A stretch of 64,000 nt of DNA from Polyangiales bacterium (GTDB lineage: Bacteria; Myxococcota_A; Polyangia; Polyangiales; Polyangiaceae): the NCBI GenBank assembly GCA_038231275.1, contig JBBRLQ010000018.1, positions 64,001-128,000 of the forward strand. Reading direction: 5' to 3'. Below the pieces are notes generated by a model that was not told the origin of the DNA, searched no databases, and saw only the letters and a list, made by a program, of their open reading frames with translations. Below are positions 48,752 to 55,210 of the stretch, one piece after another. Made by a program: the position numbers and the translations under genes. The stretch's first letter is position 1. Every line of letters begins with the position of its first letter.

Positions 48752-49183
48752 GTGATGGCCGCCCGGATGATCTCGCACGCCTCGCGTGTTCTCGCCGCGA
48801 TGATGCTCGCGCTCCCCGTGGTGCTCGTCCCGGCGGCGTGCACGTCGGGCACGACCGACTGCAGCTGCTTCGCCCCGGGCGCGCACGTGCACGTCGCGCC
48901 GGAGAGCGCGGCGGCGGTCACTTCGATCACGCTGCGCGGTCCGGCCTGCGACGGCGTCGCGACGACGTGCGTTCAAGCGGCGGCGACGGGGTGCGAGACG
49001 TACTCGATCGTGCCGAAAGCGGCGGGGAGCTGCAGCGTATCGGTCGTTTTCGTCGACGGCACGTTCACCGCGAGCGTCACGTTCGAGCAGACGAGCGGCT
49101 GCTGCGCGGGCCTCTACGCCAGCCCGTCCAGCGCCGGTGAGATCGACGCCGTTCGTTCGCCCGCCGACGGCGGTGCCGGATGA
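48752..49183 (+). CDS. Small Cys-rich lipoprotein
   Basis: Lipobox PAAC and nine Cys residues; TAGAAC lies 6 nt before the GTG. Confidence 0.7.
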   Translation: MMAARMISHASRVLAAMMLALPVVLVPAACTSGTTDCSCFAPGAHVHVAPESAAAVTSITLRGPACDGVATTCVQAAATGCETYSIVPKAAGSCSVSVVFVDGTFTASVTFEQTSGCCAGLYASPSSAGEIDAVRSPADGGAG

Positions 49184-51789
49184 CGCGCGCGCCCCTCGTC
49201 GTCCTCGGGCTCGGCCTCGCGCTCGCGCCGGCGTGCGGCGGCAAGAAGAACGCAAGAGACCCCATCGGCGTCACCGAGAAGAACCCGCCGGATGGGGGAG
49301 CGGCCGCGGCGCGAAAGATGGATGGGACCCGCCCGCCCGCGTCGTCGTTCATCGCCACCGTCGGCGACAAGAGCATCGGCCCTTTCGCGACGCGCCGTGA
49401 CGGCGTCGGCATGGCGGTGTACGTCGGACCGGCGGACACGGGCGCGCGGCGGGTCGTCAGCGTTCCGCTCGCCGAGGACGGCGAGACCCGCGGCGACGCG
49501 CACGTGGTCGCGCCCGTGAGCGCCGACGTGACCGCCCTCGCGGTGAAGCCCACGCATGGCACGGGCGCAGGCTTCTTGGCCGCGTGGACGTCGCTCACCG
49601 AGCGCGGCGAAGCGTTGACGATCGTCGGCATCGACGACGCGGGAGCGCCGCGCGGCGCCGCGACTGAGCTAGCACGCACGCCGGACGACATCGTGTGGTT
49701 CGACATCCTGCCGTGCGCGAAGGGAGCGGTCGTGGTGTGGGCGGAGGAGACGCGCGGCGGAGACGCGAACGTCCTGTCGGTCGGCATCGAACCGGACGGG
49801 CGCATGCGCGGCGTGCCCGTCCGCATCGCGCGCGGCGTCCTCGGGTGGCAAGTCGCGGCGGCCGGCGACGCGCTGGGCCTCGCGGTCGTGATGACGACCG
49901 GCGAGCCTCAAAAAAAAGGGTCCGCGCGCGCGGGCAGCCTCTCGTGGCTCAGGCTCGACGCCGACGGCAGACCGGCGGGCGCGCCGATCGTCGTGACGCC
50001 CAAGCCGATCGTCAGCGGTGACGTCGACGTCGCGCGGGTCGGCGCGCGCTTCATCTTCGCGTGGACCGATCGCACGGGCAGCGAGTCCGAGGTCACCCTC
50101 GCGAGCGTAGGTGACGACGGCGCCGTTCAGCCGCCGCACCGCGCGCTCAGCGCCGCGGGAGGCTCCGCGCTGGTGGGGCTGACCGCAGGCCCAGCCGGCG
50201 GCCTACTCGCGTGGGACGCGCCGAACCGCCGCGGCCGCCCGACGCGACGCGTGTATCTTGCACACATCGATCCCCTCGGCGAGCTCGACGGGCGCGCGGC
50301 CGCGGTGGATCTCGCGGGACGCGCGGCCCCCGAGGTCGCGGCGACGCAGACCGGCTTCGCGATCAGCGGCGCGGTGCGCTCGGCCGCAGGTGCCGCGCTC
50401 CCCACGTTCGTCCGCTTCGACGCGAACCTCACGGCGGTGCAGACCGAGCCGCTCGTCTTTGGTCCCGCCGACGAGCGAGATCCCGCGCAGCTCGCCTGGG
50501 GCCTCGCGTGCACGGGCGATCGCTGCACGATCCTCACTGCCTCCGGCGATCCGGCAAAGGTCCGCGCCGTCGACCTCGTCGCGCGCACCACGTCGTTTGC
50601 GGCCCCTGTCGCGCCGTCGGTTCCGCCCGACGCGCCACGCCTGGGCGTCGTGACCACACTCGCGCAAGGCGAGCCCTACGCCGACGTCGCGGTCGCGAAG
50701 GTCGGCGACGGCACCGTCGTCGCCCTGCTGACGACCGCCCTCGACGATGCCGCGCAGCGAAAGAACGGTGCCCCGTCCGCGGGCGCGACGCTCACGACGC
50801 GTCAGCTCGACGCCAAAGGCCTCCCTGTCGGCCCGCCGTCCACCATCACGACGCGCGCGCTCACGATCGGCGGCGTGTCCATCGCGGCCGGAGGCGCCCC
50901 CGAGGACGGCGCAGCGATCGCATGGGTCGCGCGAGAAGGCGGCGATCCTCAGGTCCACGTCACGCGCGTCGACAAGCGCGGCAAGCGACAGAACGACATC
51001 CAGCTCACGACCACCAAAGGCGACGCGGCCGACGTCGCGATCGCATGGGCGGGCGGCGGCTGGCTCGTCGCGTGGGTGGATTGGCGCGGCGGCAACGGCG
51101 AGGTTTTCGCCACGAAGGTCGGCCCCGATCTGTCGCGCATCGCCCGCGAAGAGCGCATCACCGACGCTCCCGGCGACGCCAGCGACGTGAGCCTCCTCGC
51201 GCGCGGCGACGCGGCGTGGCTGGCGTGGTCCGACCCACGCGAGAGCCCCGCCGACGGCTTCGCGGACATCTTCGTCACGCAGATCGGCGCGAAGGATGCC
51301 AAGCGCCTCGGCGAGGAGCAGCGAGTCCTCGCGAGCGCCGCGCACTCGCGCTCACCGGTCCTCGCGGGGACCACCGACGGCGTCGCGATCGGTTGGATCG
51401 AGGAGGCGCCTTCCGGAGCCGACGCCCAGAGCTCGGTCGCCCACGGCGCGATGATCGCGCGCCTCGACGAACGTGGAAAACCGCGCGGCGGTCTCTTCAA
51501 GGTGCGCGCCGCCGGAGACGGCTTCCCCACGGCCCTCACGCTCGAAGGTACGGGCACCGGCCTCCGTGGCGTCCTCGCGCGCGGCGATCGTGAGCAGCTC
51601 GAGCTCGACGCGGTCGAGTTCGTCGCGAACGACGCCGGCCCCCGCGCGTTCCCGCTCGTCACACTCGACGGCCCGCCCTCCCTCGACGTGTCGCTCGTCC
51701 TCTTCGACGGCGCCCTCTACTACTACGACGACGGGCCCGAGCCCGGCGACCGACGCGCCCGTCGCGCGGGCATCCTCTGGAAGAAGTGA
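49180..51789 (+). CDS. Large lipoprotein, probable double beta-propeller
   Basis: Lipobox APAC; repeated hydrophobic-AW strands followed by D..G turns; ATGA overlap. Confidence 0.75.
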   Translation: MTRAPLVVLGLGLALAPACGGKKNARDPIGVTEKNPPDGGAAAARKMDGTRPPASSFIATVGDKSIGPFATRRDGVGMAVYVGPADTGARRVVSVPLAEDGETRGDAHVVAPVSADVTALAVKPTHGTGAGFLAAWTSLTERGEALTIVGIDDAGAPRGAATELARTPDDIVWFDILPCAKGAVVVWAEETRGGDANVLSVGIEPDGRMRGVPVRIARGVLGWQVAAAGDALGLAVVMTTGEPQKKGSARAGSLSWLRLDADGRPAGAPIVVTPKPIVSGDVDVARVGARFIFAWTDRTGSESEVTLASVGDDGAVQPPHRALSAAGGSALVGLTAGPAGGLLAWDAPNRRGRPTRRVYLAHIDPLGELDGRAAAVDLAGRAAPEVAATQTGFAISGAVRSAAGAALPTFVRFDANLTAVQTEPLVFGPADERDPAQLAWGLACTGDRCTILTASGDPAKVRAVDLVARTTSFAAPVAPSVPPDAPRLGVVTTLAQGEPYADVAVAKVGDGTVVALLTTALDDAAQRKNGAPSAGATLTTRQLDAKGLPVGPPSTITTRALTIGGVSIAAGGAPEDGAAIAWVAREGGDPQVHVTRVDKRGKRQNDIQLTTTKGDAADVAIAWAGGGWLVAWVDWRGGNGEVFATKVGPDLSRIAREERITDAPGDASDVSLLARGDAAWLAWSDPRESPADGFADIFVTQIGAKDAKRLGEEQRVLASAAHSRSPVLAGTTDGVAIGWIEEAPSGADAQSSVAHGAMIARLDERGKPRGGLFKVRAAGDGFPTALTLEGTGTGLRGVLARGDREQLELDAVEFVANDAGPRAFPLVTLDGPPSLDVSLVLFDGALYYYDDGPEPGDRRARRAGILWKK

Positions 51790-53207
51790 TGGGCGCGGGA
51801 CGATCGGCGGTGATCGCGCTCGCCGTGAGCGCCGCGCTGGTCGCGACCGGCTGCCCGATGATCCGTCGCCACGAGACGCAGGCGAAGGCCGCAGAGCAAG
51901 CGCTCCCGAAGACCGCCGAGGGTCTCCTCTCCGCCGCGACCGTCTTCAGCAGCGTGCGGCACGAGTTCATCCTCGACCCGACGAGCAGCTTCGCGCCCGG
52001 GCGCGGCCTCCAGAAGCGTGAGAACGGCCTGTGGGAAGCCGTCCCCACCGAGTGCGCGCGGGGCAAGCGCGCGCGAGAGGGCCAGGCCGCACCTCCGCGC
52101 GTCGATCCCGCGACGATCGATTTCGGCTACGTCGGCGTCGCGATCGACTCGTCGCTCGTCGGCCTCGACGCCGATCTCACCAAGTTCTTCGGCGCAGGCT
52201 TCGAGGTGTCGTCCCGCACGCTGCGCCTCGTCGCGATCGCCTTTGCGCGCGATCTCGATCCGCAGTTCTTCGAGGCCTCCGACGACGTCGCCTACGCGGG
52301 CGAGGGCTGCGCCTGCGCGCGCGCGACGCATTTCGTCGGCGCGGTGAAGCTAGGCGCGATGCTCTCGTACGAGACCACCGCGGTCGCCTCCGAGGTGCAC
52401 GGCAACGCGTTCGACTACTTCAAGGCGAAGCTCGCGCTCAAGGACGAGACGGTGAAGGAGCGGCGCGTCGGCGTCCTCGAGATCGACGGCCTCGAGACGC
52501 TCGGCGCCGACGCCACGCACCCGCCCACCTTCCACGTGAAGGACGCCGTGCCGTTGGCGTATTCGGTCTATCCCATCTCCGACGTGTGTCGCTTCGCCCT
52601 ACCGGCGCCCGACGTCGCCCCTGCGCTCGTCGACTTCGGGGACGTCGCGTACGGCGGGGAGTCGACGCGCCTCGTCCACGTGCAGAACCGCGCCGCCATC
52701 GATCTTCTGGCGATCCACGAAGGTCGGAACTTCGCGGTCCCCGCGCGCGGGAGCGTCGACGTCCCCATCTCGTGGCGTCCGCGCGGCGACGCGCTCGGGT
52801 GCGAGGCGCAAACGCGAGAGGAGACGCTGCTCTTCGTGCCGCGCGACGACGGCGTCGTGGTGGTGCCGTCGCAGCAAGCGGTCCGCGTGGTGGAGCGCGT
52901 GCGCGCCGGAAGGGCGTCGCTCCGTCAGGTCGAGCGCATCGACACCGGTGACCACCGCAAGCCCGACTATACGAAGACGCAGCGCGACACGACCTGCCCC
53001 GCCGACTACGCGGCCCGCGCCTGCACGATCGACAACGCCCAGTGCGCCGACAAGAGCGGCGTCTGCAAGGGCGACGGGTATTCCGTGACGGCGGCCCTGA
53101 CGCCGGCCGGGTGCCATTTCGCCTGCCAAGGCCCCGACGCTTTGCTGCGCAGCCAGTTCTGCCGGTTCGACGCGGTCACCGAGTGCGCGCTTCGGTGTGC
53201 AAAATAG
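51786..53207 (+). CDS. Lipoprotein with possible MACPF/CDC-like domain, ASH/Ig-like domain and Cys-rich C-terminus
   Basis: Lipobox ATGC; ATHFVGAVKLGA and AVPLAYSVYPI motifs; VDFGDV...V.N Ig-like module. Confidence 0.6.
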   Translation: MMGAGRSAVIALAVSAALVATGCPMIRRHETQAKAAEQALPKTAEGLLSAATVFSSVRHEFILDPTSSFAPGRGLQKRENGLWEAVPTECARGKRAREGQAAPPRVDPATIDFGYVGVAIDSSLVGLDADLTKFFGAGFEVSSRTLRLVAIAFARDLDPQFFEASDDVAYAGEGCACARATHFVGAVKLGAMLSYETTAVASEVHGNAFDYFKAKLALKDETVKERRVGVLEIDGLETLGADATHPPTFHVKDAVPLAYSVYPISDVCRFALPAPDVAPALVDFGDVAYGGESTRLVHVQNRAAIDLLAIHEGRNFAVPARGSVDVPISWRPRGDALGCEAQTREETLLFVPRDDGVVVVPSQQAVRVVERVRAGRASLRQVERIDTGDHRKPDYTKTQRDTTCPADYAARACTIDNAQCADKSGVCKGDGYSVTAALTPAGCHFACQGPDALLRSQFCRFDAVTECALRCAK

Positions 53208-53228
53208 CGACCCGCGCGCGCTTTTGAC

Positions 53229-53255
53229 GCAACCCGCGGCGGCTCGTGCCGATGG
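53229..53255 (+). promoter_or_regulatory. Sigma-28 (FliA)-like promoter
   Basis: GCAA-N15-GCCGATGG versus the consensus TAAA-N15-GCCGATAA. Confidence 0.5.
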
Positions 53256-53314
53256 GGCAACGAGGAGACGGGCGCGTCCGCCTGGGCCCTCGCTGAACCA
53301 GAGGAGAAAACATC

Positions 53315-53827
53315 ATGGACATCAATGGAATCGGCAATCGCCCCGACGTCACCGCCGTCGCCTCCGCGCCGCGCCCCACCCCGACGCCCGTTCGCGTCCA
53401 CTTCGCGGAGGTCATGGCCAAGACCGTCGTGAGCGGCGCCGAGAGCGCGATCCGCGCGCTTCCCGGCGGGCCCATGATGGCGGTCGCGCTTCGTGGGGGA
53501 GGCGCGGCGTCGGCGTCGACGATGTCGATCACCCGCCCGTTCGGCGGCGCGCACGCCGCGCTCGCGACGCCCGAGGGCCCGGGTGGCTCGGCGTCGGGCC
53601 TCGGCGGAATCGGCGGCGCAGCGACGGGGGTCGGCGGCACCGGCACCGGAACGGGCGCCGAAGGCGGGAGCATCGAGGCGACGATGCAGCAGAGCCAGGA
53701 GATGAACCTCTACTACCTTCAGATCCAGGAGCAGGTGAACGCGCAGAACCGCTCGTTCTCGACGCTCTCCAACGTGCTCAAGGCCGAGCACGACACCGTC
53801 AAGACCGCCATCGGCAACGTTCGCTGA
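53315..53827 (+). CDS. Hypothetical protein with T3SS needle (SctF)-like C-terminal helix
   Basis: Strong RBS (AGAGGAG); no signal peptide; Gly-rich linker; ends SNVLKAEHDTVKTAIGNVR. Confidence 0.75.
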   Translation: MDINGIGNRPDVTAVASAPRPTPTPVRVHFAEVMAKTVVSGAESAIRALPGGPMMAVALRGGGAASASTMSITRPFGGAHAALATPEGPGGSASGLGGIGGAATGVGGTGTGTGAEGGSIEATMQQSQEMNLYYLQIQEQVNAQNRSFSTLSNVLKAEHDTVKTAIGNVR

Positions 53828-53894
53828 AACGATGGCGATCCCGCTCACCTGTGCTCGCGCTTGCTTCGTTCGACCTGTAGTCTAGGAGACGGCC

Positions 53895-54257
53895 ATGCCG
53901 ATCGATCCCATCGGAAAAGGCGGGGGGATCCCGCCGCAGACGCCTGGCCCCACCGGTCCGGACGCGGTGGCCCCGACCAAGGCGTTCGAGGTGAGCCCAG
54001 CGGGCGGGGCGCAGAAGGCCGAGGGCGCGCAGGCGGTCTCGGCCGGCCCGCTCGACGAGCTGCGCGCCGGAAAGATCGACGTGAATCGGTACGTCGATCT
54101 CAAGCTCGACGAGGCGACCGCGCACCTGAAGGGGCTGCACACGTCCGAGCTCGCGCACATCCGCGACGTCCTGCGCGACAAGATCGTCCACGATCCGCAG
54201 ATCGCGGATCTCGTGCGCCAGGCCGCGGGCGCGGTGCCGGCCCCGCACGACGAATGA
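53895..54257 (+). CDS. Small hypothetical protein (disordered N-terminus, helical C-domain)
   Basis: AGGAG RBS; MPIDPIG Pro/Gly-rich start; stop overlaps the next ATG. Confidence 0.75.
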   Translation: MPIDPIGKGGGIPPQTPGPTGPDAVAPTKAFEVSPAGGAQKAEGAQAVSAGPLDELRAGKIDVNRYVDLKLDEATAHLKGLHTSELAHIRDVLRDKIVHDPQIADLVRQAAGAVPAPHDE

Positions 54258-55210
54258 GCGCGCCCCTCCTCTCGCGCCGCGCGCTCCTCGTCGGCGTGGG
54301 CGCGGGCGTCGCGACAGGATGCTCGAAGAAAGAGCCCCCGCCTCCGATCGTCGCGTCGAGCCCTCCGCCACCGCCTCCGCTCGACGCAGGAATGCGCGGG
54401 TCGTCGCGGCTCGTCACGATGACGTTCGACGCCGACGCCGGCGGGCCACAGACGGCCGCGATCTTGGTGCCGACGTGGGGCCCCGAGGGGACGCGCTTCC
54501 CGGTGGTGGTTGCCTTGCACGGGCGCGGCGAGGCGCTGAAAGGCCCCGATCGCGGCGCGTTCGGCTGGCCGCGCGATTACGCCCTCTCGCGCGCGATGGA
54601 ACGCATCGCGTCACCGCCGGTCACCCCCGCCGATCTCGAGGGCTTCGTCGACGACGCTCGGCTCGCGCAGATGAACACCGATCTGGCGGCGCGCCCGTTC
54701 GGCGGCGTCATCGTCGCGTGCCCGTACGTTCCCGATCTGGATCTGCGAACCTTCAAGGACGTGCGCGCGTACGGAAAATGGATCGTGGAGGTCTTCCTCC
54801 CGCGCGTCCGCCGCGAGACGCCCGCGATCGCGTCGTTCGAGGCGACTGGCATCGACGGAGTGTCGCTCGGCGGCGCGACGGCGCTGCGGGTCGGCTTCGC
54901 GAATCCGGAGGCGTTCGGCGCGGTCGGCGCGCTGCAACCCGCAGTCTTCGACGACCAGGCGCAGGAGTGGACCGAGCTCGCGCGCTACGCGAGGAAGAAA
55001 CGCCCAAGCATGGCGCTCCGCCTCGTCACGAGCCACGACGACTACTACAACGGCCCCATCACGCACCTTTCCCAGGCGTGGCGCGCAGGCGGCGTCGAGC
55101 ACGAGTTCGCGGATCTGCCCGGACCTCACGACTACGCGTTCAACCGCGGCCCCGGCAGCTACGAGCTCCTCTCGTGGCACGATCGCGTCCTCCGCCGCGC
55201 GTCGCGTTGA
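54254..55210 (+). CDS. Alpha/beta-hydrolase esterase, Tat-type lipoprotein
   Basis: SRRALL twin-arginine signal with ATGC; LHGRG, GVSLGG nucleophile elbow and GPHD His. Confidence 0.85.
   Translation: MSAPLLSRRALLVGVGAGVATGCSKKEPPPPIVASSPPPPPPLDAGMRGSSRLVTMTFDADAGGPQTAAILVPTWGPEGTRFPVVVALHGRGEALKGPDRGAFGWPRDYALSRAMERIASPPVTPADLEGFVDDARLAQMNTDLAARPFGGVIVACPYVPDLDLRTFKDVRAYGKWIVEVFLPRVRRETPAIASFEATGIDGVSLGGATALRVGFANPEAFGAVGALQPAVFDDQAQEWTELARYARKKRPSMALRLVTSHDDYYNGPITHLSQAWRAGGVEHEFADLPGPHDYAFNRGPGSYELLSWHDRVLRRASR

Follow-up and report, generated by a model that had tools for sequence, protein, structure and literature searches.

A candidate needle-position gene and a putative anti-sigma factor gene as a probable detached fragment of a type III secretion module in a Polyangiales bacterium

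The window analysed here is a stretch of 64,000 nucleotides from a Polyangiales bacterium (NCBI GenBank assembly GCA_038231275.1, contig JBBRLQ010000018.1, positions 64,001 to 128,000 of the forward strand). It contains two small genes, ORF-A and ORF-B (ORF, open reading frame), which lie behind a conserved promoter site and in front of a putative esterase gene, ORF-C (Table 1). The initial annotation, which read ORF-A as an orphan needle-like type III secretion system (T3SS) substrate, described both ORFs and a GCAA-N15-GCCGATGG site (53229-55), all of which are present. It also reported no T3SS or flagellar apparatus gene in the window, and this holds for the five proteins scanned (49180-55210; ORFs listed for 50-58 kb), none of which belongs to a T3SS or flagellar family. 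Gene neighbourhoods, a regulon motif, co-occurrence across genomes, weak family matches and a predicted complex, all computed here, lead us to propose with moderate confidence that ORF-A and ORF-B together form one piece that has come away from a type III 'needle module' of Polyangiaceae-type Myxococcota. The pair would look orphan because the operon to which it belonged is dispersed.

Table 1. Features of the ORF-A/ORF-B locus (window coordinates)
Feature	Position	Strand	Description	Basis
Promoter block TTTTGACGCAAC-N12-GTGCCGATGGGGC	53222..53259	+	Conserved across genus	Sequence
-35-like GCAAC	53229-53233	+		
-10-like GCCGATGG	53248-53255	+		
Shine-Dalgarno-like GGAGAA	53303..53308	+	6 bases 5' of ORF-A ATG	Sequence
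ORF-A, 170 aa	53315..53827	+	Candidate needle-position (SctF-position) type III early substrate	
ORF-A motif F30-A-E-V-M34	53402..53416	+	Candidate docking motif	Conserved F-x-x-[VI]-[LM]
ORF-A residues 136-170	53720..53824	+	Part of long C-terminal helix	Aligns with SctF C-terminal helix
ORF-B, 120 aa, start MPIDPIG	53895..54257	+	Candidate FlgM-like anti-sigma factor	
ORF-B residues 52-112	54048..54230	+	Four short helices, predicted sigma-binding surface	AlphaFold2 model
ORF-C, 318 aa	54254..55210	+	Putative esterase; start overlaps ORF-B stop (ATGA)	

Neighbourhoods were read in 69 related loci. ORF-B lies directly 3' of ORF-A in 58 of them and is then followed by an esterase gene in 56; the cultured Labilithrix luteola DSM 27648, whose genome is complete, shows this arrangement of ORF-A, ORF-B and esterase (locus L086). 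The other 11 loci have a gene of 104-110 amino acids (aa) directly 3' of ORF-A; for it, as for its counterpart elsewhere in the window's genome, the closest known family is SctI (MxiI, PrgJ, YscI; NF038054). T3SS_SctI was the top NCBIfam family for all three proteins tested (E values of 0.035, 5.2e-4 and 1.8e-3, below the cut-off) and matches to PF09392 were also sub-cut-off (1.6e-4 and 2.6e-4), while a precomputed PF09392 annotation is present on 23 of the 120 best homologues and the best solved-structure match was to MxiI, in C-terminal register (E 0.36). Alignment of this SctI-like family with SctF using hhalign gave no significant similarity (P 0.31).

The operons usually found around the SctI-like gene contain a stand-alone FlhB C-domain gene (PF01312; a significant match, E 8.4e-21), an LcrH/SycD-like tetratricopeptide-repeat (TPR) chaperone (E 3e-10), SseC-like (E 3.5e-4) and SseD/YopD-like (E 0.0025) proteins and a YscP-like ruler (E 0.025), together with a TPR lipoprotein, an outer-membrane-like protein, a small protein and a tip-like protein. 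Locus L080 carries the whole gene set with ORF-A and ORF-B on one strand; there the SctI-like gene begins within the overlap with the ORF-A stop codon, ORF-B closes the operon at a distance of five genes from ORF-A, and the esterase gene ORF-C is absent. In three loci ORF-A lies 110-150 bp 3' of a non-flagellar sctV gene that is 58-69% identical to a second sctV in the window's genome. A 190-aa protein encoded inside the needle operon of L080 (7160-7732), with homologues in seven of the 69 loci, starts like a signal peptide and has …GWAF at its C-terminus. In an operon that has no secretin gene, this protein could belong to the outer membrane.

In the window's genome the homologues of these operon genes are spread over several contigs (C1, C2 and so on). 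The small-protein, tip-like, chaperone and two translocon-position genes are on C28, the SctI-like gene on C2, the TPR-lipoprotein gene on C4 and the ruler-like gene on C22, with ORF-A and ORF-B in the window. The motif CGCAAC-N12-GTGCCGATGG heads five dispersed pieces: the SctI-like gene, the TPR-lipoprotein gene, the ruler-like gene, the tip-plus-chaperone genes and ORF-A. A second set of export-gate genes, consisting of sctV (C8:158436-160430), sctU (C2:269335-270408), sctR (C6:160520-161194) and a FliN/SctQ-like gene (C1:458146-459267), occurs as singletons among unrelated genes and outside the flagellar cluster, so that the whole non-flagellar T3SS, and not only the needle module, appears to be dispersed here. 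The second sctV product scores 404 bits against Shigella MxiA and 352 bits against the genome's own FlhA, and the second sctR product scores higher against Shigella SpaP than against the genome's FliP; sctU does not score higher against the Shigella protein. The genome thus holds second export-gate copies distinct from the flagellar ones, as an injectisome-type system would.

A search of 151 evenly drawn Myxococcota genomes detected the ORF-A profile in 28 and that of the SctI-like protein in 26 (the two together in 26, ORF-A alone in two, the SctI-like protein alone in none), counts that overstate independence since related genomes are kin. Some FlhA/SctV homologue of the second sctV protein is present in 89 of the 151, and the 30 strongest matches (best E <=9.1e-117, a threshold set after the gap was seen) comprise all 28 ORF-A carriers and two of the 123 non-carriers, the next non-carrier following at 1e-101. 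The carriers span at least seven families, and in one family, which belongs to another class, all 13 genomes are carriers; in several large families of the sample that have an sctV-like gene, neither ORF-A nor SctI-like genes were found. Co-occurrence with T3SS genes had been suggested as a check on the needle-like reading, and all 28 carriers do hold a close relative of one sctV type.

ORF-A has no hydrophobic N-terminus and no signal peptide, and its C-terminus reads ...SNVLKAEHDTVKTAIGNVR. The AlphaFold2 monomer model (mean predicted local distance difference test score, pLDDT, of 55) consists of a short helix (residues 30-48) and a long C-terminal helix (residues 120-168, pLDDT 74-81), separated by a Gly-rich linker of about 70 residues; residues 52-114 have a pLDDT of <50. 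The model fits the disordered N-terminal part and helical C-terminus first described from the sequence. Homologues number 902 at E<=0.01 (proteins of similar length), the named ones belonging to Polyangiaceae and to Labilithrix, including Labilithrix luteola, and a profile search against 1.84 billion representatives gave 1468 matches at E<=0.001. In an alignment of 20 homologues the last 50 residues are almost invariant; an N-terminal block is also conserved, with F30 invariant.

The likeness of ORF-A to the SctF needle subunits (MxiH, PrgI; PF09392) lies in this C-terminal helix. An alignment of 20 SctF sequences, built from mxiH of a Shigella plasmid and confined to the SPI-1 (Salmonella pathogenicity island 1)/Mxi type, yields a consensus ending in SNTVKVFKDIDAAIIQNFR. 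The seven identities in 19 C-terminal residues (S, N, K, D, I, N and R) on which the initial annotation had relied were reproduced against this tool-derived consensus, in register to the last residue and with the pattern S-N-x-x-K-x-x-x-D-x-x-x-x-I-x-N-x-R. By itself the 19-residue match is weak: when 20 sequences close to ORF-A were compared with SctF, hhalign gave P=0.052 and covered 21 columns. When 63 diverse ORF-A sequences were used, hhalign returned a score of 24.3-24.4 (P 0.0012-0.002) over 35 columns, with residues 136-170 of ORF-A aligned end to end with residues 49-83 of SctF. Reversed profiles scored 12.6-12.8, unrelated families 10-12 and 60 column-shuffled SctF profiles at most 18.2, and the alignment thus exceeds 60/60 shuffled profiles and all reversed and unrelated controls. 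Sub-threshold C-terminal matches were also seen among 150 representatives of the ORF-A family, to PF09392 (four; E 0.027-0.18), HrpA_pilin (four) and HrpF (one), and one Atlas neighbour cluster of ORF-A has PF09392 on 11% of its members. The window's genome itself has two sub-threshold PF09392 matches, neither of which is ORF-A; the one on C28 was set aside as the C-terminus of the tip-like protein. Further points of likeness to SctF are the position of the ORF-A gene directly 5' of an sctI-like gene, the missing signal peptide and the very strong conservation of the C-terminal helix.

Could ORF-A instead be an unrelated helical protein, its T3SS link a matter of inherited synteny and its likeness to SctF a convergence of helical composition? 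Its failure to reach any curated family, the low hhalign probability and the 58 loci in which its neighbours are an esterase and a phosphoenolpyruvate-utilising enzyme, and not T3SS genes, would all be expected in that case. Such a protein would hardly be found in T3SS contexts of two distinct kinds (within the operon and after sctV), with a promoter motif common to four other dispersed operon pieces, with co-occurrence in at least seven Myxococcota families and with an SctF alignment that surpasses every control, and we regard this explanation as quite improbable.

Several results nevertheless weigh against the needle-module interpretation. Scans of Pfam and NCBIfam gave no match for ORF-A or its operon-type homologues, and no curated threshold, including those of PF09392 and TIGR02105, was reached; ORF-A profiles found no SctF or needle match among solved-structure sequences. 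The hhalign probability for ORF-A against SctF is only 14-19%, with an SctF profile of the SPI-1/Mxi type only. The monomer model contains one 49-residue helix and a distant short helix in place of an SctF-type hairpin of about 80 residues. The length of ORF-A, 170 aa, is twice that of known needle subunits (about 80). Where SctF has a short N-terminal helix and a P-x-x-P turn, ORF-A has a conserved N-terminal region of 60 residues and a Gly-rich linker of 70. On the side of the module as a whole, the SctI, SseC, SseD, YscP and LcrH assignments are mostly below curated cut-offs, the kinship of the sampled genomes limits what co-occurrence can say, and ORF-B was detected in 11 of the 151, nearly always within the family to which the window's genome belongs, a far narrower distribution than that of ORF-A. 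To these are added the breadth of the promoter set and the properties of ORF-B described below.

The same data bear on whether ORF-A, though part of a type III module, is a minor axial component (an adaptor, a second rod or an EspA/Bsp22-like filament), the needle being formed by the SctI-like protein or by one that went undetected. The size of ORF-A and the missing hairpin point in that direction, as does the fact that the PF09392 and SctF/SctI matches go to the 104-110 aa neighbour and not to ORF-A. A 208-299 aa operon protein also has a C-terminus resembling that of ORF-A (common motif S-N-x-L-x-x-x-H-x), which suggests that several paralogous axial-type proteins are present. Against a minor role, ORF-A holds the canonical sctF slot and is coupled to the sctI-like gene, the alignment of its last 35 residues with SctF reaches the very end of the protein, the near-invariance of its C-terminal 50 residues is as expected of a major polymerising subunit and no other SctF candidate was seen in the operons. 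We consider a minor axial role unlikely. Rather, ORF-A probably is in the SctF position and works like SctF; its gene sits with sctI and apparatus genes in the operon-type loci. Its membership in the SctF family is unproven, because no curated threshold is reached, the hhalign probability is low and the monomer is not a hairpin. The original view of ORF-A as a needle- or filament-like T3SS substrate encoded away from its apparatus is thus upheld by the neighbourhoods, by the promoter shared with four operon pieces and by co-occurrence, and falls short with regard to SctF membership.

A second short region of ORF-A may be relevant to its recognition. The gate-recognition motif of early flagellar subunits takes an F-x-x-x-hydrophobic form. 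In the SctI-like family F41 and L45 are invariant, giving the same F-x-x-x-hydrophobic pattern as F30-x-x-V-M/L of ORF-A, and in both families this motif is located about 30-40 residues along, behind a disordered N-terminus. Alignment of the two motifs using hhalign gave a score of 17.4 (P=0.034) over 10 columns; in another comparison of ORF-A with this family P was 0.15 and the motif alone was aligned, another result unfavourable to the interpretation. ORF-A resembles SctI in its layout, with a disordered N-terminus in front and a conserved helix at the C-terminal end. It differs in giving no match to the SctI profile in the NCBIfam scan and in aligning with the SctI-like family over the short F-x-x-x-L motif alone. 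When read by eye, the ruler-like protein also carries an F-x-x-x-hydrophobic motif. Early flagellar subunits dock on the FlhB C-domain via a short hydrophobic gate-recognition motif (residues 36-40 of FlgD), according to passages in one report (PMC8983047). By analogy, the motif may offer a lead, and not a result, on how ORF-A is recognised.

Across three genomes of the genus the promoter site does not change, in contrast to its flanks. The exact motif of the window was found among the 69 related loci in the same genus only; a relaxed form, CGCAAC-N13-15-G(C/T)CGA(T/C), was read by eye 5' of ORF-A homologues in most of the related loci, including the after-sctV loci. A genome-wide search, proposed at the outset, returned 11 strict sites as against none in the reversed genome (21 and 2, respectively, for a looser form). 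The site is therefore not a chance occurrence, being invariant in the genus, present in relaxed form in relatives and represented by 11 strict sites against none. From its position, transcription of ORF-A would start near 53262. At many sites of the motif an ATG follows only about six bases 3' of GCCGATGG (GTGCCGATGGggaggcATG), as at C3:411668, C4:243427(-), C16:4965(-), C18:179651 and C28:6475(-), and these short spacings imply transcripts with no leader or almost none. This does not apply to ORF-A, which has a leader of about 58 bases and a normal Shine-Dalgarno sequence.

The initial annotation called this a sigma-28-like promoter. The sigma-28 consensus upstream of late flagellar genes is TAAA-N15-GCCGATAA, and the GCCGAT of the -10-like element equals the core of its -10 part. 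The -35-like element here is CGCAAC, and some 20 sites form a set separate from FliA-dependent promoters. The canonical pattern TAAA-N15-GCCGATA[AT] occurs once in the genome, at about 300-340 on the minus strand of the small contig C95. This occurrence was dismissed; it sits in a stretch where GGTGCCT-like words recur, and no gene is evident downstream of it. The site is thus real and conserved, and its assignment to the flagellar sigma-28 type is not sustained, the motif being absent 5' of all four flagellin genes.

To our knowledge, myxobacteria are usually described as non-flagellated. As read from the N- and C-termini of its ORFs, contig C15 of this genome has a complete flagellar cluster at about 95-132 kb, with rod, hook and MS- and C-ring genes, the export gate, FlhF, FlhA, FliA (above the cut-off), MotAB, FlgM and four tandem flagellin genes. 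The canonical FlgM is encoded at C15:123240-123383 (50.6 bits). FliA was above the cut-off in four of the five other carrier genomes tested, and Labilithrix luteola also has one. ORF-A and ORF-B might on these grounds, and given the sigma-28 -10 core, be flagellar class-3-type genes under FliA, with ORF-B as an accessory regulator or chaperone. We judge this the most improbable of the alternatives: there is no strict-motif site in the flagellar cluster or before the flagellin genes, ORF-A adjoins non-flagellar sctV, SctI-like, LcrH-like and translocon-like genes, it tracks one sctV type in 28 of 28 carriers where any FlhA/SctV match occurs in 89 of 151 genomes, and the second sctV is nearer to Shigella MxiA than to the genome's own FlhA.

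Besides the T3SS pieces, the motif precedes genes for DprA, a ComF-like phosphoribosyltransferase, a Ser/Thr kinase and large lipoproteins (Kelch, DUF7481), with sites at C2:76857, C18:179651 (outside the window), C2:7295, C53:5858, C3:411668 and C16:4624. These unrelated genes make the regulon wider than the T3SS and the promoter not T3SS-specific, which detracts from the proposal. Through this regulon, genes of the competence type and surface proteins may be linked to the T3SS module.

As for the factor that reads this promoter, a gene for a 262-aa sigma factor lies directly 5' of the SctI-like gene in the window's genome; its best families are FliA and WhiG (84.5 and 81 bits, below the cut-offs). 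In nine of 20 orthologous loci the SctI-like gene is directly 3' of this sigma paralogue, and among the 31 genomes searched the paralogue is present in all 16 that carry ORF-B. It is a likelier reader of the motif than the flagellar FliA. That it reads the CGCAAC promoters is a presumption, a further reason for reserve about the proposal.

ORF-B has a conserved start, M-x-I-D-R-I-G-K-G-G, followed by about 50 low-confidence residues and four short helices. The start MPIDPIG emphasized in the initial annotation is present, and its similarity in style to MDINGIG carries no weight alone. Pfam and NCBIfam gave no match, comparison with solved-structure sequences gave nothing meaningful and the Atlas neighbours are unnamed Myxococcota clusters only. 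Modelling of ORF-B with the sigma paralogue, both entered as alignments, gave a complex score of 0.88 in three runs, where the best of three controls scored 0.00; the score mark used is reached by 116 of 157 solved complexes and by two of 215 mismatched pairs. Contacts agree by at least 82%, the pLDDT of the partner is at least 66 and residues 52-112 of ORF-B touch sigma regions 2, 3 and 4. On the basis of this predicted complex, the most likely role of ORF-B is that of an anti-sigma factor, FlgM-like, for the FliA paralogue, rather than that of the second type III structural substrate for which it was first taken. ORF-B as the canonical FlgM was ruled out, since that protein is encoded in the flagellar cluster.

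Some findings on ORF-B speak against this part of the proposal. Its AlphaFold2 model is poor (pLDDT 59), with residues 1-50 predicted to be disordered, and none of 36 members of its family matched the FlgM profile PF04316 at E<=1. The structure of a sigma-28/FlgM complex has already been solved, and the high complex score may reflect likeness to it, not binding, an effect of which the prediction tool itself gives warning. If the complex were such a modelling artefact, ORF-B could serve the same T3SS as a secretion chaperone, or as a regulator or substrate that is itself secreted; the missing FlgM similarity and the lack of any named Atlas neighbour would be in keeping with this, and adjacency to ORF-A in 58 of 69 loci would suit a chaperone. 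A disordered N-terminus such as that predicted for the first 50 residues of ORF-B is, however, unusual for needle chaperones, ORF-B lies five genes from ORF-A in L080, and neither the gap between the complex score and its three controls nor the presence of the sigma paralogue in 16 of 16 carriers would be expected. We find this alternative rather doubtful.

In an anti-sigma role, ORF-B would parallel FlgM in its small size, in the disorder of its N-terminal half and in the helices of its C-terminal half, which are predicted to touch regions 2, 3 and 4 of the sigma factor, as well as in being encoded in a type III operon (L080) with a promoter having a GCCGAT -10-like core. The differences from the FlgM/FliA pair are the lack of FlgM sequence similarity, a divergent sigma paralogue that stays below all FliA cut-offs, a -35-like CGCAAC in place of TAAA, and a regulon of needle, rod and ruler genes, not filament genes; export of ORF-B would be a further parallel, at present a conjecture for which the predicted disorder of its first 50 residues and its place in the operon speak.

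In some relatives the needle module is found as a single operon, in the order small protein, tip-like protein, TPR chaperone, SctE-like and SctB-like translocators, TPR lipoprotein and ORF-A, continuing with the SctI-like inner rod, SctP-like ruler, stand-alone FlhB C-domain, outer-membrane-like protein and ORF-B. In the window's genome this operon would have been broken up into pieces on at least five contigs, each keeping the same promoter, and ORF-A and ORF-B would be neighbours since the genes between them moved away. ORF-A, whose gene immediately precedes the SctI-like gene with translational coupling between the two, would be an unchaperoned early substrate; its disordered Pro-rich N-terminus and F-x-x-x-hydrophobic motif would dock it at the export gate, the Gly-rich linker would come next and the near-invariant C-terminal helix would polymerise into a needle or filament. 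The C-terminal half of ORF-B is predicted to wrap around regions 2, 3 and 4 of the FliA/WhiG-like sigma paralogue, and its disordered N-terminus would allow export via the finished apparatus. Loss of ORF-B from the cell would free the sigma factor for transcription from CGCAAC-N14-GCCGAT promoters, including that of ORF-A, in a checkpoint of the FlgM type. Secretion, polymerisation and the choice of sigma factor are, like the checkpoint, what we infer from the computed results.

Passages in earlier reports describe the Myxococcota T3SS as having no secretin, SctF/needle, tip or translocon (PMC3459982, PMC12075869, PMC11509652). In the same passages, this absence serves as an argument that non-flagellar T3SSs at their earliest did not inject in a contact-dependent manner (PMC3459982) and as a basis for models of predation via a 'needleless' T3SS* (PMC12075869, PMC11509652); PMC11821767 only scores T3SS homologues of M. 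xanthus. No report of SctF-like or SctI-like genes was found in the full-text literature on Myxococcota type III systems, subscription-only papers and supplements aside. The system described here resembles the Myxococcus xanthus T3SS* and the 'Myxo' group of non-flagellar T3SSs in belonging to the same phylum, in having a non-flagellar export apparatus and in operons with no obvious secretin gene, although no search aimed at secretin was made. It differs in having SctI-like, ruler-like, tip-like, chaperone and translocon-like genes in addition to ORF-A (26-28 of 151 genomes). The remark in the initial annotation that the myxobacterial T3SS lacks a recognisable needle applies to the Myxococcus-type system; the one considered here has a different sctV type with needle-rod-ruler genes of its own.

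If the interpretation is correct, 28 of the 151 genomes, from at least seven families, carry needle-position, rod-like, ruler-like, tip-like and translocon-like genes, a module that would have been missed so far because its genes are divergent and, in many genomes, scattered. This would bear on how injectisomes arose from flagella and on what soil predators do with this T3SS, and would point to a possible assembly checkpoint of the sigma-28/FlgM type outside flagella. A broader proposition can be put forward tentatively, as possible rather than probable: that a lineage of the Myxococcota T3SS is not needle-less, with an axis in which an unusually large SctF-like ORF-A is joined by a rod of SctI-like type, by a ruler and a tip-like protein and by translocators, and with their expression timed by a checkpoint of the FliA paralogue and an exported, FlgM-like ORF-B. 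Such a system would represent a surviving intermediate between flagellum and injectisome, in which the needle module is a dispersed regulon held together by its promoter alone.

The product of ORF-C matches the Pfam family Esterase weakly (E=7.2e-5, 23.1 bits; cut-off 22), and the gene is translationally coupled to ORF-B and probably co-transcribed with it; its N-terminus is twin-arginine-like and lipobox-like (…SRRALLVGVGAGVATGC…). Upstream of ORF-A, the ORFs at 49180-51789 (869 aa) and 51786-53207 (473 aa) have no family match and are syntenic 5' of ORF-A in 40 and 18 of the 69 loci, respectively; the 473-aa product has a Cys-rich C-terminus and a weak choice-of-anchor-D match.

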